DNA of 33,852 bases from sequence record SRR22947727_213. One strand, written 5' to 3'. This document shows positions 2,847 through 22,975 of this stretch, in pieces. Positions within the stretch are counted from its first letter, which is position 1. Every line of letters starts with the position of its first letter. The notes below the pieces were generated by a model. The model ran no database searches. It was not told the DNA's origin and worked only from the letters and a program-made list of their open reading frames with translations. The position numbers and the translations under genes are program-made.

Positions 2847-3929
2847 ATGTTTGTAGCTGATTTGCATAACGATCTTGTGCAAAGAATGATGATTGGCGAG
2901 GATGTGACTAAAAATACATCCTCTGGCCACACTGATATTGAACGATTAAAACTATCTGCAATTGACTTAGAGGTAATGATTGTGTGGGCTTCTGAAAAAG
3001 AGGCTAATACAAGTTACTTTGAATTTGCTTCTAAAATGTATGAAAAATTAAAAGCATTAGAGAATGTTGACGGAGTTTCTATTCCTATTACTCTTGAAGA
3101 CATAAAAGTCGCTAAACAAAATAATCAATTATCTCTTCCTATTGCAATGGAGGGCGGTGAAGCTTTAGAAAATAAAATAGAAAATTTAGAATACTTTATT
3201 AATAAAGGGCTTTTTTATTTTGGTCCAACATGGAACCATTCCTTAGATTGGGTGAGTTCTGGATATGAAGAAACACATAAGAAATCTACCTTAAAGACAG
3301 TAGGATTAAATAAATTTGGTGTTGAAGTAATTAATATCTGCCAAGAAAATAATATTTTAGTTGATATGTCTCATATTGGTGAAAAAAGTTTTTGGGACAC
3401 AATTGCTATTACAAAAAAACCAATCATTGCATCACACTCTAGTGTCTATAATTTATGTCCACATTTTAGAAATCTTAAAGATGATCAAATTGTAGCTATT
3501 AAAAACACAAATGGTTTTATTGGTCTTAATCCTTATCCTTTTTTTATTGATCCAACATTTAAGACTAGAGAACAAAAGGTAAGAGCTAATTGTAAACAAC
3601 AACTCAATGAACTTGCAGACACACAAGAAACGACAGCAGGTAAATGGATAGTGAAACAGCACTTTCTACAAAAAGAATTAGCATCTGTATGTCCTGGAAT
3701 GGACATTTTTATTAATCACATTGAATACATAATTAAAATGATAGGCATTGATTATGTTGGTGTAGGCAGTGATTATGACGGTCTTGACTGTCTTCCACAA
3801 GGTTGGAATGATTGTATGGATCATATGCTTATTGCACAAGAATTAGATAAAAGAGGATACTCTTCAGAGGAGATTGAAAAAATTATGGGAAAAAATATAT
3901 TGCGTGTTTTAGAAGAGATATGGTCTTAA
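2847..3929 (+). CDS. Membrane dipeptidase (peptidase M19) family protein
   Basis: Motifs DLHND, MEGGE, TWNH, VDMSH, ASHS, RNLKDDQI and GSDYDG. Confidence 0.88.
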   Translation: MFVADLHNDLVQRMMIGEDVTKNTSSGHTDIERLKLSAIDLEVMIVWASEKEANTSYFEFASKMYEKLKALENVDGVSIPITLEDIKVAKQNNQLSLPIAMEGGEALENKIENLEYFINKGLFYFGPTWNHSLDWVSSGYEETHKKSTLKTVGLNKFGVEVINICQENNILVDMSHIGEKSFWDTIAITKKPIIASHSSVYNLCPHFRNLKDDQIVAIKNTNGFIGLNPYPFFIDPTFKTREQKVRANCKQQLNELADTQETTAGKWIVKQHFLQKELASVCPGMDIFINHIEYIIKMIGIDYVGVGSDYDGLDCLPQGWNDCMDHMLIAQELDKRGYSSEEIEKIMGKNILRVLEEIWS

Positions 3930-4532
3930 CATTTTATAAAAAATTATAAGTGAAATAAAAATCAAAACAATTCCAGATATATTTTGAATAGTTTTAGTAT
4001 TATTTTCTAAGAATTGTTTTAAACCAAATCCAGTTACCACTATGGTTACTATAATGTACCATATTCCATCAATAGATGAAGCCATAAACACCATGGTTAG
4101 TTTTGTCATACTTGTAGATGAAGCTTCAATGAATTGTGAAAAAATAGCAGTAAACCAAATAAGAATTTTAGGATTTAAAATACTAATAGCAAATCCTTGA
4201 ATAAAGGAATTCAGATTTTTTTGATCATCTTCAAGGGATAGCTTCTCTCCAGAATTTTTCAGAAATAATATCCCTAAAATTAATAAAAAAATACTTCCAC
4301 AAAACTGTATCGTATTAAATACAAAAATATTATTTATTAATATTAGTTGCAAGCCTACAACAGAGATTGAAGCATAGATACCAATACCGATTGCATGGCC
4401 AATAGAGCTAAGCAGGCCAGAAACCCTTCCATATTTTATTGAATTTCTAATGATCAGTGCCATTGAAGGTCCGGGAGACATTGCCCCAACAATACATATT
4501 GAGGCAAATTGGACCCAAAACCAATTAATCAT
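3909..4532 (-). CDS. LysE/RhtB family amino acid exporter
   Basis: GAMSPGPS near the N-terminus, GF...LNPK motif, about 6 hydrophobic segments. Confidence 0.9.
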   Translation of the reverse strand: MINWFWVQFASICIVGAMSPGPSMALIIRNSIKYGRVSGLLSSIGHAIGIGIYASISVVGLQLILINNIFVFNTIQFCGSIFLLILGILFLKNSGEKLSLEDDQKNLNSFIQGFAISILNPKILIWFTAIFSQFIEASSTSMTKLTMVFMASSIDGIWYIIVTIVVTGFGLKQFLENNTKTIQNISGIVLIFISLIIFYKMLRPYLF

Positions 4533-5268
4533 TTTTTTGTTGTGTTATTTTTTTATATTTCTCAATTGTTTCTTTTAGTCCAAAATCAATACTATCACAT
4601 ACTAAAGCATGCCCAATTGATACTTCTTTAATAGTAGAAATATTTTCTAAAATATAATCTAAATTATCTAAATTTAAATCATGTCCTGCATTCAGTAATA
4701 TGAATGGAAATTTTCTTTTTAAATAATCTGCTACTTCAAGATAAGGTTTTATTGCTGAGTTTTTATTTTCATAATAATTTTTGGCATAATCATAAGTGTA
4801 CAATTCCACTCTATCTGGTTTAATGATGCCCAGATTTGAAAGTGTTTCAGAGGATGGATTTATAAAGATAGAAACTCGAATGTCATTATCTCTAAACTTG
4901 TTTATGATATCACTCAAAAAGTTTTTACTTTCTTCGCAGTTCCATCCAAATGATGATGTTAATGCTTCAGGTGGATCTGGAACGAGAGTAACTTGTTCAG
5001 GTGATACATCAATTACTCTACTAATAAAATCATCTGAAGGGTAACCTTCAATATTAAATTCTATTTTTTCATAATTATCAGTAAGATTTTTTAATTCTTC
5101 TAAATCTGAGAATTTAACATGCCTCTCATCTGGTCGAGGATGTACAGTAATGCCGTCTGCACCGTATTCAATACATTTTTTACCTATGTCGACGAGGTTT
5201 GGCATATCGGCACCTCTAGCATTTCGTATTAAAGCAAATTTATTTATATTGATGCTTAGCGCAGTCAT
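4525..5268 (-). CDS. pdxJ: Pyridoxine 5'-phosphate synthase
   Basis: Motifs RNARG, GITVHPRPDERH, NIEG, VTLVPD, VELYT, NAGHDL and EVSIGHAL. Confidence 0.95.
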   Translation of the reverse strand: MTALSININKFALIRNARGADMPNLVDIGKKCIEYGADGITVHPRPDERHVKFSDLEELKNLTDNYEKIEFNIEGYPSDDFISRVIDVSPEQVTLVPDPPEALTSSFGWNCEESKNFLSDIINKFRDNDIRVSIFINPSSETLSNLGIIKPDRVELYTYDYAKNYYENKNSAIKPYLEVADYLKRKFPFILLNAGHDLNLDNLDYILENISTIKEVSIGHALVCDSIDFGLKETIEKYKKITQQKND

Positions 5269-5271
5269 AAG

Positions 5272-5916
5272 TTAAATTTCTTTACCATAGGTTTTCAACA
5301 TCCATTCTTGAACTTTTGGATGGATATGTACTTGATGATGAGCATTTTTTAATTTTGGAAAATCATCAATAATAGAAGTGGGGATACCATCAATGATACC
5401 TGATGTTAACCAGCCAAGTAATCGCCATATTGCAATATCTGCAATACTCATTTTTTCTACAAACCATGTAGATTCATCCTCTAAAAGTAAACTTTCTAAA
5501 TATCTAAACCATCTTGGTAAAAATTTGTTGACTAGCAATTTTCTATCTTCTATTTTTTTATCTAGATCTTTTTCTCTTATTGTGGGGCTTACTAAATTTG
5601 TTATATCTGTTGCGGAATCTATAATCTGATCAATTTTGGCAGCTTTCAGATTATCTTCAGAATAAAGATTGGAAGCTTTACCGCAATATCTTGCTATAGC
5701 TCCAGTTTGACCAATAATTTTACCATCAACTTCTATGACAGGTAGTTGGTGGAAGGGAGCTTTTTTACCATTTGGTAAAAAACCTGTTTTTATTACATGT
5801 ACAAACTCTTCTCTTGAAACTCTAATATCTTCAAAGGGAATATCTTTAATGAATAAAGAAACTCTCAGTACTTCCGCTCTCCAAAAAGGTGTTTGACTAT
5901 AATAAATTTTAATCAT
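5272..5916 (-). CDS. Glutathione S-transferase (sigma-class-like)
   Basis: Motifs RAEVLR, PFHQLPVIEVDG, QTGAIARY, and the C-terminal domain signature SIADIA. Confidence 0.9.
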   Translation of the reverse strand: MIKIYYSQTPFWRAEVLRVSLFIKDIPFEDIRVSREEFVHVIKTGFLPNGKKAPFHQLPVIEVDGKIIGQTGAIARYCGKASNLYSEDNLKAAKIDQIIDSATDITNLVSPTIREKDLDKKIEDRKLLVNKFLPRWFRYLESLLLEDESTWFVEKMSIADIAIWRLLGWLTSGIIDGIPTSIIDDFPKLKNAHHQVHIHPKVQEWMLKTYGKEI

Positions 5917-5926
5917 TATTTTTATC

Positions 5927-6096
5927 GATTCTACCTTAACTCTCTATATTTATCTTTATTTCTTAAGCATTAAATTAAACTTGATGGATTTGTAATCAAA
6001 ATCTTCTAAAACCAGTGTCGAGTCTGGTATTTTGAATTCCGATTTAATTACCTTTGCGCAAATGTCAGACTCAACCACTCCCCACTAGATAGAATC
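5927..6096 (-). ncRNA. Candidate structured RNA or 5' leader (unassigned)
   Basis: On the minus strand GATTCTATCT (6096-6087) can pair with AGGTAGAATC (5936-5927). An inner stem AGTGGTTGAGTCTG / CAGACTCGACACT gives 13 bp with one bulge. It matches no family I recognise. Confidence 0.35.
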
Positions 6097-6140
6097 ATAT
6101 ATAAAATGATATATGTAAATCATTAATAATAGGAGATTTT

Positions 6141-6542
6141 ATGATTGAGACAGCTGGGGGAATGATACCGTTTTTGTGTCATTGTTTTTTAATTTTGTTT
6201 GGGGGCTTCTTTGGACTTAGTTTTGCTTTTAATAAGAGCTTTGTAAAAAATAGCATTGGTTATGAATCTAAAGAGGCAATGTTTATGGGAAGACCTCTTG
6301 GATTTTTAATGATCGGCACGGTTTTAATGCTTATTGCCACATTATTGCAAATTGGAAGTTTCACTTCACCCAACGAAGTTATTGGTATTTTATTTATTTT
6401 TACGATTTTAGCTTTTTGTTTTAATCTTGGAACAACATTAAAAATTTTTGAGAGCTATGATGGAAATGATTGGCCAATTAAACATGCAATTAGACCTTTA
6501 ATACCAATGGTGATAGTTTTAATAAGGTATTTTAGTTTGTAA
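6141..6542 (+). CDS. Hypothetical ~4-TM membrane protein
   Basis: 133-aa ORF with a strong SD (AGGAGA), four hydrophobic segments and its own terminator. Confidence 0.8.
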   Translation: MIETAGGMIPFLCHCFLILFGGFFGLSFAFNKSFVKNSIGYESKEAMFMGRPLGFLMIGTVLMLIATLLQIGSFTSPNEVIGILFIFTILAFCFNLGTTLKIFESYDGNDWPIKHAIRPLIPMVIVLIRYFSL

Positions 6543-6556
6543 ATATAAAATAATTT

Positions 6557-6590
6557 AAATAGCACTCTTTCTATGAGTGCTATTTTCTTT
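6557..6590. terminator. Intrinsic terminator, probably bidirectional
   Basis: AAATAGCACTC-tttctat-GAGTGCTATTT (11-bp stem) followed by a T-rich tract, between convergent genes. Confidence 0.85.
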
Positions 6591-6976
6591 TAACATTTAT
6601 CATTTTTTATTTCATTTTTTCTCATTGGCATTGAATCAATTAAATTAAATAATCTAAACAATATTTTTTCATCTAGGCTATAATCTTTAATTTCCCCATC
6701 ATATCCAAGTAACCAAATACCATATTTTTCATTTATAAATTTGGGTGTTAAAAAATTTATATTTTTAAATTTTTCAAAAAAAATTATTTCTAAATTTCTA
6801 TCATTAAGTTCACATTTATAATCAGAGATAAATTTTTCAATTTTAATAAATAAATTATTATTCTTATTTTCATAAGAAATAATAAGTATTCTTTTTTCCC
6901 AATTTAAATTTGCTATTTGTTTTGCCATTGCCTCAATGCTTATAAAGAAAATTATTAATATGATTATATATTTCAT
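6590..6976 (-). CDS. DUF4174 domain protein with signal peptide (start corrected from 7027)
   Basis: Motifs W.KRIL, LLGYDGEIK and LFNLIDSMPMR.NE. MKYIIILIIFFISIEAMA is a signal peptide. The longer ORF start lies inside the tRNA. Confidence 0.8.
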   Translation of the reverse strand: MKYIIILIIFFISIEAMAKQIANLNWEKRILIISYENKNNNLFIKIEKFISDYKCELNDRNLEIIFFEKFKNINFLTPKFINEKYGIWLLGYDGEIKDYSLDEKILFRLFNLIDSMPMRKNEIKNDKC

Positions 6977-6982
6977 TAAAAA

Positions 6983-7057
6983 TGGTGCCACAGGGCAGAA
7001 TCGAACTGCCGGCTTATTCATTACCAATGAATTACTCTACCCCTGAGTTACTGCGGC
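6983..7057 (-). tRNA. tRNA-Thr(GGT)
   Basis: Reverse complement reads GCCGCAG TA ACTC AGGGGTA GAGT A ATTCA TT-GGT-AA TGAAT AAGCC GGCAG TTCGATT CTGCC CTGTGGC A CCA: a full cloverleaf with encoded CCA. Confidence 0.97.
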
Positions 7058-7058
7058 A

Positions 7059-7088
7059 TTGATTAAACTTCAACATCGAATATATAAT
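7059..7088 (+). promoter_or_regulatory. Putative sigma70 promoter for the nuclease gene (possibly leaderless mRNA)
   Basis: TTGATT-18 nt-TATAAT ends 7 nt before the ATG at 7096, and there is no SD. The AT-rich background weakens this call. Confidence 0.4.
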
Positions 7089-7095
7089 TAAATTA

Positions 7096-7572
7096 ATGAA
7101 AACAACCATATTAATTTTTTACATAATTTTATTGTCTTTTAGTAATTCTGCTTTTGCTAAAACAATAAATGGAAAACCTAAAATTGTAGATGGTGATACA
7201 ATTCATATAAAAAGTAATAAAATAAGACTGCATGGTATTGATGCTCCTGAAACTAAACAAACATGTAAAATTAATAATGAAGATTGGTTTTGTGGCAAGC
7301 AATCTACAAAAGAATTAAAAAACTTAATTAATAATCTACAAGTAGAGTGCATTGTAAATAATATTGATAGGTATAAGCGTTATGTTGCAATTTGTTCCGT
7401 TAATGACATTATTATTAATCAGTGGATGGTGAGAAATGGCTGGGCAATTGCATACCGTTATTATTCTAAAGATTATATTGTTGATGAAGAATATGCTCAT
7501 GATAATAAATTAGGTATTTGGAAAAGTGAATTTGTAGAACCCTATACATTTCGTCGACAGAATAAAAATTGA
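7096..7572 (+). CDS. Thermonuclease (SNase-like) family protein with signal peptide
   Basis: Motifs IVDGDTI, IRLHGIDAPE, DRYKRYVA, MVRNGWA and A...KLGIW. Confidence 0.92.
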   Translation: MKTTILIFYIILLSFSNSAFAKTINGKPKIVDGDTIHIKSNKIRLHGIDAPETKQTCKINNEDWFCGKQSTKELKNLINNLQVECIVNNIDRYKRYVAICSVNDIIINQWMVRNGWAIAYRYYSKDYIVDEEYAHDNKLGIWKSEFVEPYTFRRQNKN

Positions 7573-7621: not shown

Positions 7622-8875
7622 ATGAGTGAACTTAATAAATTAGATTTAAATTGGATTGATTCTTCAAACGAAGATCAAAGAGAGCGCTTTTTGGATGCAT
7701 TAAATTCATATCTTTTGTTTAAAAAAGACAGTTTAGATAAATGCAATTTATTGATTGAAGAAAATCCAAATTTTAACGCACCTAAATTATTAAAAATAAT
7801 TTTAATTTTACTCACACGTGATAATAATAAGATAAATGATGCAAAAACATTACTAGGCAATATTAATATTGAGAATTTAAATGATCACTTCAAAAAATAT
7901 CTTAATGTAATATCGTTTTGGCTTAAAAAAGATCTGCACTCAGTCATTTCCATTCTTCAAAATATTATTACCGATCATAAAAAAGATATATTGGCAATAC
8001 GGTTACTTCATTTTAATAATATTTTTATTGGTATAGACTCCAATTTTCTTCGTAAGCACCTAGAGATTTTGGATAGTTGGACAAAAACGGATCCTTTTTA
8101 CAATTTAATTCTAGGGATGACGAGTTTTGCTTATGAGGAAAATGACCAGTTATCTCTTGCTCAAAATTTAGCTAATGAATCATTAGCAATTTCAAAAAAA
8201 GATTTATGGAGTTGGCATGCTTTACTGCACGTGCAAGATAATGAATTATTATCTGATTTAGAAAGTAATGAATTTTTTACATCAATTGATTGGTCTAAAT
8301 ATGGAGCAATTAAGCGACATATATGGTGGCATCAAGCCCTTATGCATTTTTATAAAAAAGATTTTATCAAATGCCTCGAGATGTTTGATAATTTTATATT
8401 TAGTGAAGATGAATTTTATTTAGATTTTTGTAACGCCAGTTCTCTACTGCTAAGGTTGCACTATCAAGGTGTTGATGTTGATCAGAGAATGCACAAACTA
8501 CAACCTTTGGCTAATTATTTTTGTGAACAGCAACTCATACCCTTTATCGATTATCATCTTATACTATTTTATAAATATTTTGATGACACAGAACGTCTGC
8601 AATTAATTAAAGAGGGTGTCAGTCAGCATTATGAAAATACAAAATTTCAGAATACTACTAGTAGTTATTTAGAGCCAGTACTAAACAATCTCCTAAATAG
8701 AAAAGTTATAGATGCAAAAGTGGTGCATAATGCTTTTCATCAACTCGGGGGAAGTTTTGCTCAACGAGAAATTATTTTACTTGGACTTCTTAATCATAAT
8801 GATCAATCTAATTTACAAAAAACAATAAAAGATATCTTTAATGCTAAAAAAACTAGTGTTGTAAACTATGCATAA
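7622..8875 (+). CDS. TTC38-like tetratricopeptide/alpha-helical repeat protein
   Basis: Motifs GM.SFAYEE, D.WSWHALLHV, HIWWHQAL, NASSLL.RL and GGSFAQRE resemble the TTC38 family, but the protein is diverged. Confidence 0.7.
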   Translation: MSELNKLDLNWIDSSNEDQRERFLDALNSYLLFKKDSLDKCNLLIEENPNFNAPKLLKIILILLTRDNNKINDAKTLLGNINIENLNDHFKKYLNVISFWLKKDLHSVISILQNIITDHKKDILAIRLLHFNNIFIGIDSNFLRKHLEILDSWTKTDPFYNLILGMTSFAYEENDQLSLAQNLANESLAISKKDLWSWHALLHVQDNELLSDLESNEFFTSIDWSKYGAIKRHIWWHQALMHFYKKDFIKCLEMFDNFIFSEDEFYLDFCNASSLLLRLHYQGVDVDQRMHKLQPLANYFCEQQLIPFIDYHLILFYKYFDDTERLQLIKEGVSQHYENTKFQNTTSSYLEPVLNNLLNRKVIDAKVVHNAFHQLGGSFAQREIILLGLLNHNDQSNLQKTIKDIFNAKKTSVVNYA

Positions 8876-10700
8876 TTTTGATTCCTTGGGATATCTAAAA
8901 AATGAAATATTTGAAAAATTCACTATTAATAATTTTTCACTTTTAAAAGATAATCTGTTTTTTAGAAGTATAAAATATAATAATATTGAAATATTAAAGT
9001 TAATTTCATTTTTAGTAAGAGATAAAAATTGGAATAATTATTCACCTGAAATTATTAATACTTCATCATATAACAAAGAAAAAAAATTACATTTTGAATT
9101 TGATTTAAAATATGGTGATGTTGAACAATTAGAAGTGAAACTTCTTCTTTCAATAGGTGATAATTCTGTAAAATTAATTGCTAATGGTAAATTTTTAACT
9201 GATTTTTGGACGAATAGAATAGGTTTTAATCTTCTTTTGCCATTAGATGGTGTTGTTAATCAGCAAGTAATTGTGTCAAAAAGTGATCATACAACTGAAA
9301 CACTAAAATATCCCGTAATTATTCAGCCCGATCAACCAATGGTTAAATTTAATAATCTTTCATACAAAATATTTGACTCAATAGCTCTTAACATTAGATT
9401 TGACGGTATTCATTTTGAAATGGAAGATCAACGAAATTGGGGAGATGCATCTTATAAAATTTATAGCGGGTCTTTACTCGATCCATTTCCTTATAAAGAA
9501 AATAAAAATTCTGACTTTCATCAGGAAATAGAAATTACTATGAGAGAAAAAAATAATTCATTCGAAGCTATACCAAATCAAAACATATTACCGAATAATA
9601 TCAGAGAAGAATTCACGATGCCAAAAATAGGTATAAAAGTTGATAATGAAACTAGTGGAATTGATATGGTAAATGTTGATTTTTTATATCATCTGGTCGA
9701 TTTTGAAAATAATACTGAGAGTAGCAAGCCAAATTCTAATCATCTACCTATTTATTTAGTTGTACTTATTGATCATTCTAAGAAGGTTAAGGACATTATA
9801 AAAGATATAAAAGATTATATTGTTTTAAACAAAATAAACATTGATAAACTTCTTATCTGTCCTAAAATTTATTTAAATAGTTTTCAACCTGCTGGTGAGT
9901 GGCCATCAGTTCCACAATTAGGAGATTATTACAAAGAGGCTAAAATTCAATTCCCGGATGTTCAAATTTTCTCTGGCATGGTAACTAATTTTACAGAATT
10001 AAATAGAAAGAAACCAAATGGTGATTTTGATGGAATTAATTTTTCTTTTACCCCAATAGTGCATGATGCAAGTGATTATGGTGTATTAGATACTCCTAAC
10101 TCTCTTAAATTCATTTTAAATTCAATTAATAATTTTAGTAAAGATACACCAATACACATTGGTCCCATGACTCTTGGAATGCATTTTAATCCTTATGGAG
10201 AAAAACTTGCTCCTAATACAGATAAAGTAAGATTGGAAATGACTGATTTGGATCCACGACATGATAGCCTTATTAGTTTGAATTGGACTATTGCTGTGTT
10301 TTCAGAAATTTTATCAAAAAATACTAAATTTGTCACCATTGCTTCACTCAAAGGTATTCATGGTATACTCACAGAAAATAATCAGAAGAGACCTTTATTT
10401 TATCTTTATGAAGTCTTGTTGTATTTTAAAAATGCAAAAATTTATAAAATTGAAAAAATAAATTCAATCTCAGGTGTGAAACTAGTAATGGAAGAAAAAA
10501 TGTATTACTTATTAACAAATAACTCATCAAGTCAGACAAGTTATATTTTAGAAAATGAAACTGTTCTTCAGCAAAGTTATCTCAACAAAAATAATTTTGA
10601 GCAATTAAGCAAATCTCAATTTTCATTTTTAAATTTTGAAGACTCGACAGAGACCTTATCTTTTGAGCCTTATGAAATAAAATTAATTCAGGTTAGTTAA
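8868..10700 (+). CDS. apnL: D-apionate lactonase-like protein (ApnL family)
   Basis: Motifs ISFLVRDKNW, TNRIGF, FEMEDQRNWGDASYKIY, FTELNRK, P.VHDASD and NPYG..DPRH; about 610 aa; adjacent to an apsD-like gene. Confidence 0.75.
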   Translation: MHNFDSLGYLKNEIFEKFTINNFSLLKDNLFFRSIKYNNIEILKLISFLVRDKNWNNYSPEIINTSSYNKEKKLHFEFDLKYGDVEQLEVKLLLSIGDNSVKLIANGKFLTDFWTNRIGFNLLLPLDGVVNQQVIVSKSDHTTETLKYPVIIQPDQPMVKFNNLSYKIFDSIALNIRFDGIHFEMEDQRNWGDASYKIYSGSLLDPFPYKENKNSDFHQEIEITMREKNNSFEAIPNQNILPNNIREEFTMPKIGIKVDNETSGIDMVNVDFLYHLVDFENNTESSKPNSNHLPIYLVVLIDHSKKVKDIIKDIKDYIVLNKINIDKLLICPKIYLNSFQPAGEWPSVPQLGDYYKEAKIQFPDVQIFSGMVTNFTELNRKKPNGDFDGINFSFTPIVHDASDYGVLDTPNSLKFILNSINNFSKDTPIHIGPMTLGMHFNPYGEKLAPNTDKVRLEMTDLDPRHDSLISLNWTIAVFSEILSKNTKFVTIASLKGIHGILTENNQKRPLFYLYEVLLYFKNAKIYKIEKINSISGVKLVMEEKMYYLLTNNSSSQTSYILENETVLQQSYLNKNNFEQLSKSQFSFLNFEDSTETLSFEPYEIKLIQVS

Positions 10701-11728
10701 TGAAATTAAAAGGGGCAATAATTGGATGTGGTTTTTTTGCCCATAATCATATGCAGGCTTGGAATGAAATTAAAAATATTGAGATCGTTGCGGTTTGTGA
10801 TTTAGATAAGAAAAAAGCTATTTCTTTTTCAAAAAAGTTTAAGATTGCACACTATTACACTAATATAAATAAATTATTAGATGAAGAAAATATTGATTTT
10901 GTTGATGTTGTAACAACAATGGAAACTCATCTTCCAATAGGAAAAATATTATCAAAAAGAAAAATTGCTACATCAATTCAGAAACCTTTTGCTGAAAACT
11001 TACAGGACGCAAAAAAAATTGTCAGCCTTTACGAGAAGACTAAAACACCTTTAATGGTTCATGAAAACTTTAGATGGCAAACACCATTGATGACACTAAA
11101 AAAATTAGAAAAACAATATCAGTTAAAAAAACCACAATATTCTAAAATCTCTTTTCGACACGCTAATCCAGTGGGCTATACCAATCAAACCTACCTTTAT
11201 GGCTTAGAGGAATATTTGATTTTAGATGTAGGCATTCATTTATATGATTTAAGTAGATTTTTTCTAGGTGAAGCAACAAGTGTTTATACCATTAACCAAA
11301 ATACAAATAAAAAATTTAAAGGTGAAACGGCATTTACATCCCTTGTTCGACATCAGAATGGGGGAGTTAGCATTATAGATGCTTCAATTTCGTCTATAAA
11401 AACTCCTGATAGATTTGCACAAACTTTAGTAAATGTAGAATATGCAAATGGCTCAATAGATTTAGATTATGATTATAATATTACTGTTCATAAAAAAGGA
11501 TTGAAAAAAATACACAAAGGTAATCCAAAGAAGTTAAAATGGATCTCAAAACCATGGGATCAAATTCAGGAAAGTATAGTTAATACACACAATCATTTTA
11601 TTTCTTGCCTTATCAAGAAAAGAGTTCATGACACCAGTGGAGAAGATAATATCAAAAGCCTGTCTTTGGTTTTTGCATCATATAAGTCAAACAAACATAG
11701 AAAGGAAATACAGCTAAATGAAAAATAA
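10700..11728 (+). CDS. apsD: Gfo/Idh/MocA oxidoreductase, D-apiose dehydrogenase-like
   Basis: Motifs KGAIIGCGFFA.N.M.AW, QKPFA, PLMVHENFRWQTP, D.GIH..D, W.SKPW..IQES and TSG.DN.K match my recollection of rhizobial ApsD. The family call is certain; the substrate is inferred. Confidence 0.75.
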   Translation: MKLKGAIIGCGFFAHNHMQAWNEIKNIEIVAVCDLDKKKAISFSKKFKIAHYYTNINKLLDEENIDFVDVVTTMETHLPIGKILSKRKIATSIQKPFAENLQDAKKIVSLYEKTKTPLMVHENFRWQTPLMTLKKLEKQYQLKKPQYSKISFRHANPVGYTNQTYLYGLEEYLILDVGIHLYDLSRFFLGEATSVYTINQNTNKKFKGETAFTSLVRHQNGGVSIIDASISSIKTPDRFAQTLVNVEYANGSIDLDYDYNITVHKKGLKKIHKGNPKKLKWISKPWDQIQESIVNTHNHFISCLIKKRVHDTSGEDNIKSLSLVFASYKSNKHRKEIQLNEK

Positions 11729-12407
11729 TAAATTATTGAAACTGCAGAAATTTGATACCCCAACTATCTGTAATGGTCTTGAGTTGTTAGATCCAAAATA
11801 CAAGATTAAAGGATATTCAAAAGAAAAGTTTTTCTGTTTAAATCCAAAAATCAAACCGATGGTTGGGTATGCAAAAACAGCAAAAATTAGTTCTCTAAAG
11901 CATAATAAAAAAACTAAAAATTCAATTAGGATTGATTATTATGAGTATGTTAATAAAGGTAATTTCCCTAAAATTTCTGTTATTTATGATCAGCATAAAA
12001 ATCCTATAGGATCATTCTGGGGAGAAGTTAATGCCAATATACACAATAAACTTGGATGTCTTGGAGTCATAACTAATGGTTCGGTTAGAGATCTTGATGT
12101 TATACCAAAAAATTTCCAATTTTTATCAAAGACATTAAGCCCTAGTCATGCAGAAGTTTCGTTAATGGAGTTTGGAACAAAAGTTAATGTGATGGACATG
12201 GAAATTAACGATAATGATTTAATTCATGCTGATGTACACGGCGCAGTATCTTTTGATGATACTCTAATAGATGATTTACTTGATGCTATTAAATTTGTTG
12301 AAAAGAAAGAAAAGGTAATTTTAGACTCTTGCAAAACTAGTAATTTCACATTTTCAAAATTTAAAAAAGCTTTTTTAAAATCTCAAACCTTAAAATTTAA
12401 AAAATAA
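11718..12407 (+). CDS. RraA-like / HMG-CHA aldolase family protein
   Basis: Motifs DTPTICN, PMVGYAKT, FWGEVN, GVITNGSVRD and DLIHADVHGAV. Confidence 0.85.
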   Translation: MKNNKLLKLQKFDTPTICNGLELLDPKYKIKGYSKEKFFCLNPKIKPMVGYAKTAKISSLKHNKKTKNSIRIDYYEYVNKGNFPKISVIYDQHKNPIGSFWGEVNANIHNKLGCLGVITNGSVRDLDVIPKNFQFLSKTLSPSHAEVSLMEFGTKVNVMDMEINDNDLIHADVHGAVSFDDTLIDDLLDAIKFVEKKEKVILDSCKTSNFTFSKFKKAFLKSQTLKFKK

Positions 12408-12537: not shown

Positions 12538-12903
12538 ATGAATTTAAGAACCGTATTTAAAGTCCAATCAATTGTATTATTTTTAAATGCAATAGGGGGG
12601 CTATTCCTAACAAGTGCTTTTTTAGGAGCTGCAGGTTGGGAAGTAACTGATGATCTTATTACTTTAGGTCAATTTTCAGGCATGACTTTCTTAGTTTTCT
12701 CAATTTGGGCATGGAGATTTCCAGATGTTGCAAGTGAGTCAATTAAATCTATTGGCATGCTTCATGCTATTGGAGGCCTTTTATTTACAATAATAATTGC
12801 TTATCATATTATGACTGGGGCAGTTGCAGGAGCTACGGCTTACGTGAATATTATTTTTACGGCTTTATTTGCTATAGGATTTTATATTTATAGTAGAGAT
12901 TAA
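12538..12903 (+). CDS. Hypothetical ~4-TM membrane protein
   Basis: 121-aa ORF with SD AAGGAGA and four hydrophobic segments, followed by a perfect hairpin. Confidence 0.8.
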   Translation: MNLRTVFKVQSIVLFLNAIGGLFLTSAFLGAAGWEVTDDLITLGQFSGMTFLVFSIWAWRFPDVASESIKSIGMLHAIGGLLFTIIIAYHIMTGAVAGATAYVNIIFTALFAIGFYIYSRD

Positions 12904-12916
12904 TATTTTATAAATT

Positions 12917-12958
12917 ACATAAACGCTTTTGTATAAAGCGTTTATGTTAGATTTTTTT
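12917..12958 (+). terminator. Intrinsic terminator-like hairpin
   Basis: ACATAAACGCTTT-tgtat-AAAGCGTTTATGT is a perfect 13-bp stem, followed by TAGATTTTTTT. Confidence 0.75.
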
Positions 12959-14913: not shown

Positions 14914-15076
14914 TAGAAAAATAAATTTAATAGGCTGGCTACTTTTTATAATATCGGCAATAGGATTTGTTATTTCTAGTGTCGGAAGTTTTTGGTCAAT
15001 GTTTGGGAGTTTATTTTTTTTAATTGCTTGCTTGGTATTCTTGATCCCCTTTTTAAGAAAAGAAAATAAAGATTAA
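14906..15076 (+). CDS. Small 2-TM membrane protein (56 aa), not in the ORF track
   Basis: MSNRKINLIGWLLFIISAIGFVISSVGSFWSMFGSLFFLIACLVFLIPFLRKENKD*. It overlaps the uup stop by 8 nt and the aldolase stop by 4 nt, filling the gap exactly. Confidence 0.75.
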   Translation: MSNRKINLIGWLLFIISAIGFVISSVGSFWSMFGSLFFLIACLVFLIPFLRKENKD

Positions 15077-15858
15077 TACGCTTCGTTTTTTGAAGCTTCT
15101 TTTGTTTTATCCTTCATCTCATCAATAACAGATTGTGCGTGAGCTGACATTGATCTAAAGTCTGATGAAATAGTTACTAGTTTAAAGCCTAAATCTATCA
15201 TTTCTTTAGCATATTGAGTTGTGCCATTATGAATGCCAGCAATTTTTCCGTACTCATTTGCTTTTTTTGCAATTAGCTTAATATTTGAAAAAACAGGATC
15301 TTCTTTAACATCAAATTGTGGCTTCATGCCGTAAGAAGAACTCATATCTGCAGGACCAATATAGACCCCAGTTAAATTTGGGACAGAAAGAATATAATCT
15401 AAGTTATCTACTGCTTGTTGTGTTTCAATCATTGCAAAACTTAAAACATTTTCATTGGCTTGTTCAAAGTAATTAGATCCATGAATTAATTGAGCGCGCA
15501 TAGGACCAAAACTTCTTTGTCCTATTGGAGGGTAGTAGCAATAAGAAACAAACTTTTCACAGTCTTCTTTTGTGTTTATCATTGGTGCTATGATTCCTAA
15601 AACGCCTAGATCTAACATTCTCATTATTATTCCTGGTTCATACCAAGGAACTCTAACCATTGGAGTTGATGAACTAGATGATAAGGCTTGTAACATAGGT
15701 ATGCTAGACGAATAATCACTTTGACCGTGCTGCATGTCTATTGTTATTGCATCCCATCCCATTTTACCAAATGCTTCTGCAGTAAAAGAATTAGGAATTG
15801 AAAGCCATGAATTAATAACAGGTTTGTTTTGTGCCCAAATTTTTAAAAGATTGTTCAT
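15073..15858 (-). CDS. HpcH/HpaI family class II pyruvate aldolase
   Basis: Motifs IDMQHG, PMVRVPW, LDLG..GIIAPMI, YPP.G.RSFGP, AMIET and YIGPADMS; SD GAGGA. Confidence 0.92.
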   Translation of the reverse strand: MNNLLKIWAQNKPVINSWLSIPNSFTAEAFGKMGWDAITIDMQHGQSDYSSSIPMLQALSSSSSTPMVRVPWYEPGIIMRMLDLGVLGIIAPMINTKEDCEKFVSYCYYPPIGQRSFGPMRAQLIHGSNYFEQANENVLSFAMIETQQAVDNLDYILSVPNLTGVYIGPADMSSSYGMKPQFDVKEDPVFSNIKLIAKKANEYGKIAGIHNGTTQYAKEMIDLGFKLVTISSDFRSMSAHAQSVIDEMKDKTKEASKNEAY

Positions 15859-15940: not shown

Positions 15941-16627
15941 ATGGATACACCTAAGTACAAAAAAATATATGATCACATTGTTAAATTAATTTTAACAGAC
16001 GAATGGCCAGTTGGTTCAAATATGAAATCTGAAAATGAATTAATTAAGATGTTCAGAGTAAGCAGAATTACAATAAGAAATGTTTTAAATATATTAGAGA
16101 GTGAGAGAAGAATTTTAAGAAGTAGGGGGAAGGCAACACTAATACTTGATAAGATCTTTAATAATGTAAAAAGTTCTGAAATTAAAGATTTTTCGAAAAC
16201 GATAAATGCAGATACTAAACTTTTAGATATTGAAGTTGTAAAAAATAATCTAAGTAAAAAATTTAAAAACTCTTCATCACTTTATCATATTACAAGATTA
16301 AGAAGGCTTAAAAATAATGAAATCTATTTAATTAGTAGAGCTTTCATTCCAACTGAGTTAGTTGGTAAGAATTTAAATAAAAGTATATTTAGAGATAAAA
16401 ATTTAGTAGCCGTGTTAATAAATTATTTTAAAATTAAGATAATAAAAAGTGAGCAAGAGATTACTGCAGTAAAGTTAAATACAAATGACGCAAATTTATT
16501 TAAGACAACACTTGGATATCCTGCAATTTCAAATACTTGGTATATGTATGATAGATCAAATAGGTTACTTTTAATGGACCAAGAGCTTACAATTAGGCCC
16601 TTAAAGGTAGAAAATTATTATCATTAA
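15941..16627 (+). CDS. GntR family regulator, HutC/UTRA subfamily
   Basis: wHTH motifs PKY..I, SENEL...F.VSRITIR and RGKAT; the C-terminal ~140 aa are UTRA-like. Confidence 0.85.
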   Translation: MDTPKYKKIYDHIVKLILTDEWPVGSNMKSENELIKMFRVSRITIRNVLNILESERRILRSRGKATLILDKIFNNVKSSEIKDFSKTINADTKLLDIEVVKNNLSKKFKNSSSLYHITRLRRLKNNEIYLISRAFIPTELVGKNLNKSIFRDKNLVAVLINYFKIKIIKSEQEITAVKLNTNDANLFKTTLGYPAISNTWYMYDRSNRLLLMDQELTIRPLKVENYYH

Positions 16628-16643
16628 CTTATTATAATAAGTT
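16626..16643. promoter_or_regulatory. Palindromic operator copy 2 (AACTTATTATAATAAGTT), putative GntR site
   Basis: Perfect 18-bp palindrome right at the gntR stop, about 60 nt upstream of the SBP start. Confidence 0.7.
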
Positions 16644-16705
16644 TAATATCTTTCTTGTTTTATTTTATAGATCTTATTTACATTAAAAATAATTTAGGAG
16701 GAATA

Positions 16706-18031
16706 ATGAAAATTAAAATGATTTACAAATTCATAGGAATTCTTTTATCAATTTCTTTTCTGTCATCACCACTATTTGCTAAAACTACTATTACTTGGTG
16801 GGGCGAATTTGATGCTAACAGAAGTCCTGTAGTAACAGAGATTGTCATGAATAAATTCAATGCTGAACACGATGACATTGAACTTGTTATGGAATTTTAT
16901 GAAGAAATTAGTGAAGTTACAAGAACGGCAATTTTAGCTGGAACTGGTCCTGATATCTTTGAATCACCCGGACCATCATATATAAAAATGTTTCAAGATG
17001 CTGGCTTCGTTAAGTCTTTAGATGAGTATGATGTTAAGTATGGTTGGAAAGAAAAGCTACTACCATGGGCATACGCTTCAGGCGTATTTAATGGTGAGTT
17101 TTTTGCCATTCCAAAAAATTATGAAAGTATGATTTACTTTTATAATAAAACTTTATTTGAAGAAAATGGATGGTCATTACCTACAAACTTGACAGAGTAT
17201 GAGGCTCTTGCTGCAGAAGTAAAAGCAAAAGGCATGCATCCATTTGCTTATGGATCTACTGGATGGCAACCTACTCATGAACATTTAGTTGGTAATTATT
17301 ATAATAATGTTGCTGGTCCAGATAATTTTTATAAAGCTTTAATTGGTGAAAAAAAATGGACTGATCAAGAATTTGTAGACTCTTTAGAACTTTTGAAAAA
17401 ACATATGCTTGACGGGTATTGGTCTGGAAGCTTAGAAAACTATTATGCTCTTGGTTGGGATGATTTTAACGCACAATTTGCAAACAGAGACTCAGCAATG
17501 TTAATGATAGGATCATGGGGATTTGAACCAACTGTTCCAGGATTTGCTGACAAGTCTGATGATTGGGATTGGGCTCCTCTTCCAAACATGACAACTGAAG
17601 GAGGGCCTTCTAATTTTCAACTTGCAATTGGATCAACTTTTTCAATTAATGCTTCATCAGAAAAAGCTGATACAGCTGCATATGTTCTTGATTGGTTAAT
17701 TAGTAATAAAGAATATGTTTTAGAAATTACTGGCAATTTTAACTACGGTGCTTGGTTAATACCTCTAAAATACGAAGATTCTGACTTTCCTGGTGATCTT
17801 GATCCAAGAATTAAAAGATATCTCACTCAGTTTGCTTCTGCTACAGGAGAAGGCAACTATGGATATACAACATGGTCATTTTTTCCAGCTGAGCCAGGAG
17901 TTCATATCTGGAAGGACATGGAGGTTGTTTGGGCTGGAGACATAACAGTCGAAGAATTTTTAGAAGATCAACAAAAATTATGGGATAAAGCTCGAGAAAA
18001 AGATCAGCTTATACCTGTTGGCTCTAGATAA
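16706..18031 (+). CDS. Carbohydrate ABC transporter substrate-binding protein (CUT1; start corrected from 16655)
   Basis: AGGAGG precedes the ATG at 16706; signal peptide ending PLFA; motifs AGTGPDIF, YNKTLFEENG and AMLMIGSW. Confidence 0.92.
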   Translation: MKIKMIYKFIGILLSISFLSSPLFAKTTITWWGEFDANRSPVVTEIVMNKFNAEHDDIELVMEFYEEISEVTRTAILAGTGPDIFESPGPSYIKMFQDAGFVKSLDEYDVKYGWKEKLLPWAYASGVFNGEFFAIPKNYESMIYFYNKTLFEENGWSLPTNLTEYEALAAEVKAKGMHPFAYGSTGWQPTHEHLVGNYYNNVAGPDNFYKALIGEKKWTDQEFVDSLELLKKHMLDGYWSGSLENYYALGWDDFNAQFANRDSAMLMIGSWGFEPTVPGFADKSDDWDWAPLPNMTTEGGPSNFQLAIGSTFSINASSEKADTAAYVLDWLISNKEYVLEITGNFNYGAWLIPLKYEDSDFPGDLDPRIKRYLTQFASATGEGNYGYTTWSFFPAEPGVHIWKDMEVVWAGDITVEEFLEDQQKLWDKAREKDQLIPVGSR

Positions 18032-18040
18032 TTATTTTCA

Positions 18041-18075
18041 AAAAGGGCTTTGATTAACCAAAGCCCTTTTTTTTT
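18041..18075 (+). terminator. Intra-operon terminator or stabilising hairpin after the SBP gene
   Basis: AAAAGGGCTTTG-attaac-CAAAGCCCTTTT, ending in a 9-T run. Confidence 0.85.
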
Positions 18076-18083
18076 CGTATTTT

Positions 18084-18959
18084 ATGAGTTTTATTTTTAA
18101 TAAAAAAATTATACCAATACTATTTGTATTACCCATAGTTAGTTTGCACTTATTAGTGGTTGCCTTCCCTTCGTTTTCTAGTTTGGCTTTGTCTGTTACT
18201 GATTGGAATGGGTTTGGAAAAATCAACTATGTTGGTTTTGAAAACTTTGAAGAGTTATTTGACGATAGAGTGTTTAAAAAAGCTATTAAACATAATATTA
18301 TATGGACAATATTTTTTTTGACAGTGCCAATAGCCATCGCATTATTAGGAGCTTACCTTTTAACTGGCATTAAAAGATTTCAACTATTTTACCGACTAGT
18401 ATTTTTCTTTCCTTATATTTTAGCTAGCATTGTCAATGCTCTAATATGGAAGTATTTGTTCCATCCTCTTCATGGTTTAGGCGCTTGGTTTAATGAAAAA
18501 GGGATAGATTTTTTAGCTTCTTCACCATTTGCTAATAAAGAAACTTCTTTATACGCTGTTGCCTTTGTCGATGCTTGGCATTTTTGGGGCTTTCTCGTTG
18601 TTATTTATATTACTGGAATGTATCAAGTAGATGACCATTTATATGAAGCTGCTGATATTGAAGGGGCCACTAAATGGCAAAAATTTATTTACATAACTTT
18701 GCCAATGATACGACCAGTTTTTATTTTTTCATTAATGATTGTTATTATTTGGTCTGTTCCTGCGTTTGATTATATTTATATCCTTACCCAAGGTGGACCT
18801 GCTTATAGTTCAGAGGTAATTGCTAATCACTTATACTCACAAGCATTTGATCGCTTTAAAGTAGGTTATGCTTCAGCAATTGGAGTAATGATGTGCTTTT
18901 ATGTTATTTTTATAGTTGGTCTATTCGGATTTCTCCGAAGAATGGGTTGGGATATTTAA
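18084..18959 (+). CDS. Carbohydrate ABC transporter permease (MalF/UgpA-like)
   Basis: Motifs VGFENF and the EAA loop LYEAADIEGA.KWQ.F.YITLP; LTQGGP. Confidence 0.93.
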   Translation: MSFIFNKKIIPILFVLPIVSLHLLVVAFPSFSSLALSVTDWNGFGKINYVGFENFEELFDDRVFKKAIKHNIIWTIFFLTVPIAIALLGAYLLTGIKRFQLFYRLVFFFPYILASIVNALIWKYLFHPLHGLGAWFNEKGIDFLASSPFANKETSLYAVAFVDAWHFWGFLVVIYITGMYQVDDHLYEAADIEGATKWQKFIYITLPMIRPVFIFSLMIVIIWSVPAFDYIYILTQGGPAYSSEVIANHLYSQAFDRFKVGYASAIGVMMCFYVIFIVGLFGFLRRMGWDI

Positions 18960-18962
18960 AAA

Positions 18963-19805
18963 ATGTCTCAGGCAAGATTTAAGCAAAAGGCAGCTATTAC
19001 TAATCACATTATATTAATGATATTAGCTTTAACAATAATTTTACCAATTTTAGTACTTGTTTTTAACTCTATCAAACCTCAAGCTGAATTTGGAACAAAT
19101 CCGTTAGGATTTCCTCATAAGCCAAGACTTATGAATTATTATGATGCTTGGGTAAAGGGAAACTATTCCAGAGTATTTTTAAACTCAAGTATATTGGTAT
19201 TTGGGACTTTAACTATTAATTTATTACTATCCGGTATGGCAGCTTTTAGTTTAGCTATTTTAAATCCAAGAGGTAAAACTACTTTAGTATTAGGTATTTA
19301 TTTACTGGTTGGTATTAGTATCCCTGCACAACTATATATTTTACCTTTATTTATACTTTGGAAAAACCTAAATTTAACAAATACATACCTAGGACTAATA
19401 TTAATTTATAGCGCTCTTAATGCGCCTTTTGCAGTTTTTTTAATTAGATCTTATATGATTCAGTTGCCAATAGAGCTTTTCGAAGCGGCAAAAATAGATG
19501 GTGCTAATACTTTCCAATTATTTTTTAAAATTGCCCTGCCATTATCTTGGCCTGTTTTCTTAACAACAGGCCTTGTGGTATCACTTGCTGTTTGGAATGA
19601 GTTTTTATTTGCCATAACATTTATACAAACTGATCAGTTTAAACCAATGGCATCAATTCTATTTGCCTTTCAAGGTAAGTATACAAATGATTTAGGATTA
19701 GTAAGCGCTGCTTCAGTAATGATGGCTGCACCAATTGCAATACTATTTATGATATTTCAACGTAAATTTATTGCGGGTTTAACCAGTGGAGGATTGAAAG
19801 GATAA
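18963..19805 (+). CDS. Carbohydrate ABC transporter permease (MalG/UgpE-like)
   Basis: EAA loop ELFEAAKIDGA, WNEFL, and C-terminal FQRKFIAGLTSGGLKG. Confidence 0.93.
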   Translation: MSQARFKQKAAITNHIILMILALTIILPILVLVFNSIKPQAEFGTNPLGFPHKPRLMNYYDAWVKGNYSRVFLNSSILVFGTLTINLLLSGMAAFSLAILNPRGKTTLVLGIYLLVGISIPAQLYILPLFILWKNLNLTNTYLGLILIYSALNAPFAVFLIRSYMIQLPIELFEAAKIDGANTFQLFFKIALPLSWPVFLTTGLVVSLAVWNEFLFAITFIQTDQFKPMASILFAFQGKYTNDLGLVSAASVMMAAPIAILFMIFQRKFIAGLTSGGLKG

Positions 19806-19807
19806 TT

Positions 19808-21973: not shown

Positions 21974-21979
21974 GGGATT

Positions 21980-22963
21980 ATGAAATCTAGAAAATTTGGA
22001 AGTTTGGATTGGCAAGTGAGTGAGATCAGTCTTGGTTGCTGGGCTATGGGCGCAGACTGGGGTGATGTTTCTGAAGAAAACGCTAAAGATATTTTAAAAA
22101 CTTCTTTTGATAACGGAGTTAATTTTTTTGATACAGCTGATGTTTATGGTGATGGTCGAAGTGAAAAATTTGTTGGTGAATTTATTAATTCAACTTCTGA
22201 GAGAATATATGTAGCATCAAAAGCAGGAAGAAGGATCTCTCCTCATGAGGCACAGGGGTATTATGATAAGGGTTTAATGGAGTCATTTGTTGATAGATCG
22301 TTAACTAATTTAAGTGTTGAAACTATAGACCTTCTTCAAATGCATTGCCCGCCAACAGAAGTGTATTCTCATGATTTAACATATGAAATGTTAGATAACT
22401 TAGTTACAAAAGGCAAAATACAACATTACGGCTTTAGTGTTCAGACTGTTGAGGAGGCTATTGCGTGTATTCAGCGACCTCATACAAAAAGTGTTCAAAT
22501 TATATTTAATATGTTGAGATTAAAACCAGCTGAAGAATTTTTTAAAATGGCTAAGGAAAAAAACATAGCCATTATAGTAAGAGTGCCACTTGCGAGTGGA
22601 TTGTTAACTGGAAAAATGAATACTAATTCTTCTTTTCCAGAAAATGATCATCGAAATTATAATATTAAGGGTGATGCTTTTGATGTAGGTGAAACTTTTT
22701 CAGGAGTTAACTTCAATAAAGCTCTTAAAGTTGTTGAAGAATTAAAGCTCTTAACACCTGAGGGATTTTCTTTATCACAACTAGCACTTAAATGGATTCT
22801 AATGCATGATGCAGTAAGTGTAGTAATTCCAGGTGCAAAAAACTCTGATCAAGTTTTAAAAAATATCTCTGCTTCATCATTGCCGGATATAAATAATTTA
22901 ATGAAAAAAATTGAACAAATATATATTACATATCTAAAAGACGACATACACCCTCACTGGTAA
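21980..22963 (+). CDS. Aldo/keto reductase
   Basis: Motifs VSEISLGCW, FFDTADVYGDGRSE, IDLLQMH, PLASGLLTGK and VIPGAKN. Confidence 0.93.
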   Translation: MKSRKFGSLDWQVSEISLGCWAMGADWGDVSEENAKDILKTSFDNGVNFFDTADVYGDGRSEKFVGEFINSTSERIYVASKAGRRISPHEAQGYYDKGLMESFVDRSLTNLSVETIDLLQMHCPPTEVYSHDLTYEMLDNLVTKGKIQHYGFSVQTVEEAIACIQRPHTKSVQIIFNMLRLKPAEEFFKMAKEKNIAIIVRVPLASGLLTGKMNTNSSFPENDHRNYNIKGDAFDVGETFSGVNFNKALKVVEELKLLTPEGFSLSQLALKWILMHDAVSVVIPGAKNSDQVLKNISASSLPDINNLMKKIEQIYITYLKDDIHPHW

Positions 22964-22975
22964 AATAATAATTTA

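Follow-up and report, generated by a model that had tools for sequence, protein, structure and literature searches.

The DNA considered here, a stretch of 33,852 nucleotides (nt) from sequence record SRR22947727_213 with a G+C content of ~29% (all of which is referred to below as the window), carries four consecutive genes that encode a protein resembling tetratricopeptide repeat protein 38 (TTC38), a divergent member of the ApnL (D-apionate lactonase) family, a predicted ApsD-type dehydrogenase of the Gfo/Idh/MocA class, and an RraA-like protein (Table 1). The best explanation of this arrangement, which we regard as evenly poised, is that it represents the form taken in the SAR11 lineage by the sugar 1-dehydrogenase/lactonase module of oxidative D-apiose catabolism, joined to partners unseen in the described pathways. 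As judged from the sequences, the module appears to be real and conserved and to be without the described downstream genes, with its substrate and downstream chemistry putative.

The four genes are closely interlocked. Genes 1 and 2 overlap by 8 nt at the junction ATGCATAA, genes 2 and 3 by 1 nt in TAATG, and genes 3 and 4 by 11 nt at ATGAAAAATAA, so that the four overlapping same-strand genes described in an earlier, sequence-only reading of this DNA are borne out by the open reading frame (ORF) listing and the junction sequences. Gene order is maintained across 61 related loci at 41-97% protein identity, far beyond what chance would allow, and the operon arrangement is therefore taken to be real. 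Contigs from RNA libraries (four libraries, three studies) span the region at 90-99% identity and cross all three junctions; their support for operon transcription is weak, since DNA may be present in such libraries and contigs do not correspond to single transcripts, and strand and expression level are not readable from them either.

Table 1. Features of the operon and its surroundings, in window positions
Feature	Position	Strand	Basis or size
Gene 1, TTC38-like helical-repeat protein	7622-8875	+	ORF listing, 417 aa
Gene 2, divergent ApnL-family protein, putative sugar-lactone hydrolase	8868-10700	+	ORF listing, 610 aa
Gene 3, predicted ApsD-type Gfo/Idh/MocA NAD(P)-dependent sugar 1-dehydrogenase	10700-11728	+	ORF listing, 342 aa
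Gene 4, RraA-like, putative metal-dependent 2-oxo-acid aldolase or beta-keto-acid decarboxylase	11718-12407	+	229 aa
Small hydrophobic protein, possible fifth operon member, perhaps membrane/transport	12538-12903	+	121 aa
Terminator-like hairpin closing the transcription unit	12917-12947	+	consensus scan only
HpcH/HpaI-family class II aldolase, candidate generic downstream aldolase, not operon-specific	15073-15858	-	PF03328, 90.6 bits

The dehydrogenase and the ApnL-family protein

The gene 3 product contains the Pfam domains PF01408, PF22725 and PF02894. Searched against the Protein Data Bank (PDB), it scores 249 bits with 5UHW and 51 bits with the next chain (any other solved Gfo/Idh/MocA protein), and 5UHW itself scores 653 bits with the dehydrogenase encoded directly upstream of canonical ApnL in the Rhizobium leguminosarum locus L011. 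In all five canonical genomes searched, the window protein finds its best match in the dehydrogenase encoded within the ApnL locus (241-297 bits), and the next paralogue outside that locus reaches at most 101 bits. Identity to the ApnL-adjacent dehydrogenase is 34-43% in 61 of 75 canonical loci, and a by-eye comparison located the stretch HENFRWQTP in both the window dehydrogenase and a canonical protein. No ApsD-specific curated model matched the protein in an NCBIfam scan, and a literature search on 5UHW found nothing relevant. By sequence and context gene 3 is treated as an ApsD orthologue, in agreement with the sequence-only reading.

The gene 2 product can be considered a full-length ApnL-family homologue by sequence, with residues 32-541 aligned on positions 32-571 of the 595 in NCBIfam model NF049900 (D-apionate lactonase). 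Its score of 312.5 bits (E 5.5e-93) lies far below the 750-bit equivalog cut-off of that model; other forms from the SAR11 order score 303-320 bits and canonical proteins 786-1050 bits. Identity to annotated ApnL is 25-31%, with 59 columns, including the motif EMEDQRNW, invariant across the SAR11 and annotated proteins. In a quick tree, which carries long-branch and composition warnings and is used for clade membership only, the ApnL-like branch is ~2.1 substitutions per site long, and specificity may have changed. Thus the earlier naming of this gene as apnL survives as a statement of family and not of equivalence, and because the protein is so far below the cut-off and on so long a branch, apiose is not established as its substrate. 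Nor does family membership fix the substrate, since ApnL paralogues coexist in one genome (G376), where a canonical protein (935 bits) is found together with a paralogue (629 bits) linked to an HpcH aldolase gene.

The predicted structure of the ApnL-like protein (predicted local distance difference test, pLDDT, 88) is composed of a beta-sandwich, a (beta/alpha) barrel and a second beta-sandwich, and the best Foldseek matches to the model are GH36/GH97 glycosidases (E ~1e-14, template modelling score 0.25-0.30). This GH36/GH97-like three-domain architecture, as modelled, would be an unexpected fold for a lactonase. An ApnL profile run against the PDB found no sequence relative.

Two partner genes and their distribution

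The TTC38-like protein has no Pfam or NCBIfam match, and a PDB sequence search with it gave nothing useful. Its resemblance to TTC38, proposed in the sequence-only reading, is supported by the ESM Atlas, in which the neighbours of gene 1 are named "Tetratricopeptide repeat protein 38" (0.97). The AlphaFold2 model (pLDDT 87.7) is an all-helical superhelix of the tetratricopeptide repeat (TPR) type, for which fold searches return only generic TPR-array matches. A profile search gathered 988 relatives at E<=1e-10, mostly of 440-470 residues. Across relatives of ~20% identity, D122, E173, H199, H203, H233, H237, D256, R289, H312 and the motif GGSxxQR are invariant, and two HxxxH pairs are invariant in the family. 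The HxxxH pairs and acidic residues look more like metal ligands than like the lining of a groove that binds peptides, and the protein is probably a metalloprotein. We know of no function for human TTC38. Panobinostat is a zinc-chelating hydroxamate. Human TTC38 is a reported target, an off-target, of this hydroxamate (PMC6885700).

Annotations of TTC38 relatives on plasmids read just "tetratricopeptide repeat protein", amid heterogeneous neighbours, and the family is met in numerous unrelated settings where ApnL is lacking. Its SAR11 members form a tight clade, which occurs only beside ApnL-like genes. A complex prediction combining ApnL-like residues 1-580 with the TTC38-like protein scored 0.00; it was run without alignments or controls and counts neither way.

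The RraA-like protein exceeds the cut-off of Pfam PF03737 (54.8 against 24.5 bits), which confirms the superfamily proposed for gene 4. Its earlier designation as an HMG-type aldolase holds in part: the likeness to HMG/CHA aldolase is at superfamily level, with 21.8 bits to the LigK/PcmE equivalog TIGR02798 (cut-off 304.5), and a subfamily profile run against the PDB scored best with the uncharacterised 3K4I (45.9 bits) and at 21 bits with the HMG/CHA aldolase 3NOJ; a PDB search with the single sequence gave nothing useful. What stands is the alignment of R124-D125 (in GSVRD) and E103 (in WGEV) with the GVRD and FGD motifs of 3NOJ, residues that are invariant in the subfamily and whose catalytic and metal roles, as an Arg-Asp dyad and an upstream acid, are presumably those of HMG/CHA aldolase. 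Relatives outside SAR11 sit in catabolic operons. The closest of these among the matches listed (44% identity; L223, G587:C48:127000-141000, 3701-7304) shares its operon with a D-2-hydroxyacid dehydrogenase, an Ldh_2-family dehydrogenase and an HpcH aldolase that scores 247 bits with the HpcH protein of the window. A metagenomic RraA-like protein, P0251, has a divergent N-terminal two-thirds, and over its last ~60 residues a single difference from the window protein was noted; chimeric assembly is the probable cause.

In the order to which relative G005 belongs, 51 of 187 species-level genomes have an ApnL-like gene. The window clade accounts for three of these carriers (65-91% identity) and a clade at ~50% identity for 44, and four are of "type B" (23-27%). 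Among 61 SAR11 "type A" loci, pooled from genomes and metagenomes with some duplicates of the same genome, 59 have the TTC38-like gene ahead of the ApnL-like gene (the other two are without upstream sequence), and 54 have the dehydrogenase after the ApnL-like gene (each of the remaining seven breaks off within the ApnL-like gene itself). The TTC38-like/ApnL-like/dehydrogenase trio is the conserved core. The RraA-like gene comes after the dehydrogenase in all 12 window-clade loci that leave it at least 450 bp, and in the 50% clade only one locus of 36 has it there (L127); its lack in the other 35 loci of this largest SAR11 clade means that RraA is not essential to the core function. In a third clade, at 41-43% identity (n=3), the gene is intact in L124, missing in L126 and reduced in L125 (3543-3704) to a 54-residue remnant, 65% identical to the RraA-like protein and located just after the dehydrogenase gene, which suggests recent gene decay. 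The RraA-like proteins of L124 and L127 are 65-68% identical to that of the window, beside operons whose ApnL-like protein is only 41-49% identical. The gene is therefore an accessory one, yet one that has stayed attached across deep divergence and that appears to decay where it is lost.

Outside SAR11 the partnership dissolves. Searches by tblastn for the TTC38-like and RraA-like genes in 75 canonical ApnL loci found neither (0/75), and profiles run over 136 ApnL-family loci outside SAR11 detected no TTC38-like gene and a single 20-bit RraA match. The idea that the two genes recur generally beside apsD-apnL is thus not upheld: the TTC38/RraA partnership is SAR11-specific and is not a general companion of that pair.

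The transcription unit may extend beyond gene 4. The 121-residue ORF begins 130 nt after the RraA-like gene and its translation is mostly hydrophobic; a Pfam scan of it gave no match, and it is syntenic in eight further window-clade loci at 57-99% identity. The hairpin that follows it (13-bp stem, 5-nt loop, T-rich tail) is the sole strong terminator-like hairpin on the + strand, and the consensus scan detected none between the four genes and this ORF. On the other side, a staphylococcal-nuclease-like gene (7096-7572) lies on the same strand 49 nt upstream of the operon and is syntenic throughout the window clade; it may share the operon promoter, with no functional link apparent. In the 50% clade, L005 has an EamA-family gene (7813-8703) directly upstream of the TTC38-like gene, and L122 has a gene resembling those of the major facilitator superfamily (MFS; 5176-6303) ~1.6 kb upstream of it; either may be the missing transporter or an acid exporter.

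A second + strand cluster occupies window positions 15941-24121, from a GntR/UTRA regulator through an MFS transporter. Between these are a 458-residue ORF without a Pfam match, placed where a binding protein would be expected, two permeases of the ATP-binding cassette (ABC) type, a 721-residue protein with an N-terminal ADP-ribosylglycohydrolase domain, and an aldo/keto reductase; an ABC ATPase gene is absent. In window-clade relatives synteny takes in the regulator, the binding-protein-like ORF and the first permease, up to the ends of the loci concerned.

Downstream steps and alternative explanations

The described oxidative D-apiose routes (1-3) proceed through ApnO together with either OiaC or the pair of OiaK and a RuBisCO-like protein; the pathways, with the ApsD/ApnL step among their reactions, were reportedly set out by Carter et al. 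in 2018. In keeping with the sequence-only reading, Pfam and phmmer searches of the window located no ApnO, DUF1537 kinase or RuBisCO-like ORF. A query made of the ApnO candidate of L011 (436 bits to PDB 5T57) matched in four of four control canonical genomes and in none of 11 ApnL-like-bearing genomes of the SAR11 order (G001-G005, G010, G013, G014 and G111-G113), and OiaK and OiaX family models matched in none of five related genomes; the relatives searched are single-amplified and metagenome-assembled genomes (SAGs and MAGs) of 0.9-1.6 Mb, for which "not found" rather than "absent" is the proper term.

A possible substitute for the described enzymes is a class II aldolase of the HpcH family. 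All four type B loci of the SAR11 order (L118, L119, L120 and L123) carry, in this order, genes for an HpcH aldolase, an ApsD-like dehydrogenase and an ApnL-like protein, and the ApnO query found nothing in type B genomes. L118 (G113:C1:650000-669999), the sole type B locus annotated further, encodes an ApsD-like protein of 39% identity and an ApnL-like protein of 656 residues (319 bits), together with TIGR02466/2OG-Fe(II) oxygenase-like and NmrA-like genes and a divergently transcribed ribose-type ABC transporter; the type B binding protein is 25% identical to the canonical apiose-locus protein, a value that is uninformative.

A similar division is seen beyond the order. Among 132 ApnL-family loci outside SAR11, 59 have ApnO and 73 do not, and an HpcH aldolase is present in 26 of the 73 and in none of the 59, figures to be read with the shortness of many ApnO-less contigs and the phylogenetic non-independence of the loci. 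A D-2-hydroxyacid dehydrogenase is also encoded in 23 of the 26. This locus-level split between ApnO and a class II aldolase suggests a second way to dismantle the branched sugar. The HpcH-linked ApnL proteins form a separate group in the quick tree, and this clade may act on a different lactone. Two compact soil-metagenome operons without ApnO, typical of this kind (L150, 1288-11129; L189, 1466-11796), encode in sequence HpcH, a D-2-hydroxyacid dehydrogenase, an SBP_bac_1 ABC transporter, an ApnL paralogue, a DUF1537 kinase and a class II aldolase, and look like an undescribed sugar-acid route, possibly by way of 2-oxo/3-oxo-tetronate-type intermediates. In the papers searched, no description of such HpcH-linked ApnL-paralogue operons was found. 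In two Acidobacteriaceae loci a canonical ApnL lies beside an apiosidase-like gene and HpcH is present. One of them, in a MAG (L064, 5969-17932), joins a canonical-scoring ApnL, an apiosidase-like PF13204 protein, HpcH and a 2-hydroxyacid dehydrogenase to a GH78 rhamnosidase, a xylose-isomerase-like TIM barrel and RhaT, and looks like a locus for utilisation of pectin or rhamnogalacturonan II side chains.

The window has an HpcH gene of its own 2.7 kb downstream of the operon. As a specific operon member it was considered and rejected, since 133 of the order's 187 genomes have it (against 51 with the ApnL-like gene), which makes it near-core; it could nonetheless supply a generic aldolase.

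Taken together, the operon probably degrades apiose or a similar sugar by an undescribed route, and D-apiose itself as the substrate falls slightly short of an even case. By homology, the ApsD-type dehydrogenase would oxidise D-apiose, or a close furanose or branched sugar, at C1 to a lactone, which the divergent ApnL-family enzyme would open to the aldonic acid. The acid would then be processed without ApnO, DUF1537 kinase or RuBisCO-like enzymes, a proposal drawn from conserved linkage and residues only. The TTC38-like protein, as a probable metalloenzyme, might render the acid cleavable, for example by dehydration, isomerisation or an oxidation-state rearrangement to a 2-oxo or 3-oxo acid, and in the window clade the RraA-fold enzyme could then carry out a metal-dependent retro-aldol or beta-decarboxylation reaction; where a lineage has no RraA, this reaction could fall to the near-core HpcH aldolase. 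These TTC38-like and RraA steps are put forward more weakly than the sugar and lactone steps. For apionate, a chemically plausible outcome would be loss of the hydroxymethyl branch as formaldehyde, a compound that SAR11 can oxidise, by retro-aldol cleavage once C2/C3 had been oxidised or dehydrated. An extension of this scheme, speculative and rather unlikely, would make the TTC38 family a group of metal-dependent sugar-acid enzymes that, with RraA or HpcH, debranch apionate via formaldehyde independently of ApnO and so feed SAR11 C1 oxidation and central metabolism, with a parallel, non-homologous route in the HpcH-linked soil bacteria. One account states that known routes avoid direct removal of the branch, a step that its authors single out as an interesting problem (PMC13753588). 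In the papers searched, nothing was found that links apionate to an aldolase.

A number of observations weigh against an apiose module of this kind. An aldolase cannot act on apionate itself because it needs a 2-oxo acid, and the operon includes no dehydratase, 2-hydroxyacid dehydrogenase or transporter. In the largest SAR11 clade 35 of 36 loci lack the RraA-like gene, and neither it nor the TTC38-like gene accompanies ApnL outside SAR11. The closeness of the window HpcH gene to the operon is probably incidental. ApnO occurs elsewhere in three of five genomes that have HpcH-linked ApnL loci, and the HpcH of the Acidobacteriaceae loci, with GH78 and RhaT adjacent, may serve rhamnose catabolism instead. 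To these must be added the unreached equivalog threshold and long branch of the ApnL-like protein, the paralogues of G376, and the reach of the pathway negatives, which extend to the window and to related SAGs and MAGs, not to the window's own genome. The aldolytic route that the sequence-only reading had advanced as undescribed has indirect support, from the restriction of HpcH to ApnO-less ApnL-family loci, and it is set back by the lack of a dehydratase or 2-hydroxyacid dehydrogenase and by the accessory standing of RraA.

Other explanations have been weighed against the same observations. The dehydrogenase/lactonase pair might have drifted to another marine sugar or lactone (a pentose or tetrose, or a deoxy or methylated sugar) and have nothing to do with apiose, as would be consistent with an ApnL-like score of 312 bits against a cut-off of 750, with the very long branches that bear SAR11 clades A and B, and with the G376 paralogues, whose coexistence implies that specificity varies within the family. 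The surroundings of the operon include no apiosidase and no apiose-type binding protein (the type B binding protein having its 25% identity to the canonical one), and in the SAR11/Pelagibacter/seawater literature apiose appears, among the matches listed, in a single paper and there solely in a reference. We nevertheless consider this explanation unlikely, if deserving of attention, given that the dehydrogenase is specifically ApsD-like (249 versus 51 bits for 5UHW and the next chain, with HENFRWQTP common to the canonical protein), that the ApsD-type/ApnL-type pairing is a hallmark of apiose loci, and that canonical ApnL adjoins an apiosidase-like gene in L064.

The remaining alternatives concern the partner genes. 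A non-enzymatic TTC38-like protein that binds the divergent lactonase, whether as TPR scaffold, as chaperone or as regulatory subunit, would suit the generic TPR superhelix, whose best structural neighbours are protein-binding TPR arrays, and equally the way in which its gene overlaps the ApnL-like gene by 8 nt and strictly accompanies it. It is improbable in view of the invariant residues of this ~20%-identity family, which are polar and metal-ligand-like and not residues of a surface groove, and of the many family members in unrelated contexts without ApnL. Very improbable, in our estimation, is an incomplete oxidation in which the trio makes the acid for reducing power, the acid is excreted or used elsewhere, and RraA is an add-on (an oxaloacetate decarboxylase or RNase E modulator). 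That most SAR11 loci consist of the trio only would be expected from such a process, as would the downstream pathway genes not found in the relatives searched, the RraA-like paralogues elsewhere in these genomes, and the upstream EamA-family gene of L005 (the one 50%-clade locus annotated in this respect) and more distant MFS-like gene of L122. It is countered by the translational coupling of RraA through the 11-nt overlap and its retention beside the trio across deep divergence in L124 and L127; by the strictly linked TTC38-like gene, which implies a third dedicated step; and by the RraA-like protein itself, which has 229 residues against 162 in the RraA chain 3C8O and matches the RNase-E regulator at only 20 bits. 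An apiose-type dehydrogenase/lactonase module with new partners remains the reading that we prefer.

Significance and relation to known systems

SAR11 bacteria are regarded as very limited in sugar catabolism. The presence of the module in 51 of 187 genomes of the order points to a widespread, unstudied oceanic sugar or lactone sink, and the findings suggest that aldolase-based alternatives to ApnO may exist. The operon is the first concrete metabolic context found for the TTC38 family, and since it encodes four small soluble proteins, the hypothesis is directly testable.

The nearest known system is the ApsD/ApnL step of the oxidative D-apiose pathways, which is summarised in a published account (PMC13753588). 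There, as here, an ApsD-type dehydrogenase adjoins an ApnL-family protein (61 of 75 canonical loci). The order is reversed in the window, where the ApnL-like gene precedes the dehydrogenase gene; the ApnL-like protein is 25-31% identical to its counterparts and below the equivalog cut-off; and the operon has neither a sugar ABC transporter nor ApnO, OiaK, OiaX or OiaC, and includes two extra partner genes.

Non-phosphorylative (Dahms-type) pentose oxidation employs an aldose 1-dehydrogenase, a lactonase, a dehydratase and an aldolase (PMC12994016). The proposed succession of sugar, lactone, acid, 2-oxo acid and aldol cleavage would follow the same logic, and a putative metal-dependent aldolase-type gene ends the operon. 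Unlike the Dahms-type route, the operon has no recognisable dehydratase, its aldolase candidate has the RraA fold rather than that of DHDPS or HpcH, and its TTC38-like protein is without a counterpart.

The HpcH-linked ApnL-paralogue operons of soil and rhizosphere bacteria resemble the present one in having an ApnL-family gene without ApnO and a class II 2-oxo-acid aldolase. They differ in having their own D-2-hydroxyacid dehydrogenase and SBP_bac_1 ABC transporter, often with a DUF1537 kinase and a class II aldolase; an ApsD-type dehydrogenase is usually missing from them, and none contains a TTC38-like or RraA gene. HMG/CHA aldolase (3NOJ) has in common with the RraA-like protein the PF03737 fold and the aligned Arg-Asp dyad and upstream acid, whose roles we assume to carry over, whereas the low scores to 3NOJ and to LigK/PcmE leave 3K4I as the nearest solved protein. 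Human TTC38, finally, is linked to gene 1 through the TTC38-named clusters that are the neighbours of gene 1 in feature space, a likeness by cluster names and not by alignment, and both are presumably helical-repeat proteins of ~420-470 residues with conserved His-rich motifs; the SAR11 subfamily is set apart as a tight clade confined to ApnL-like neighbourhoods.

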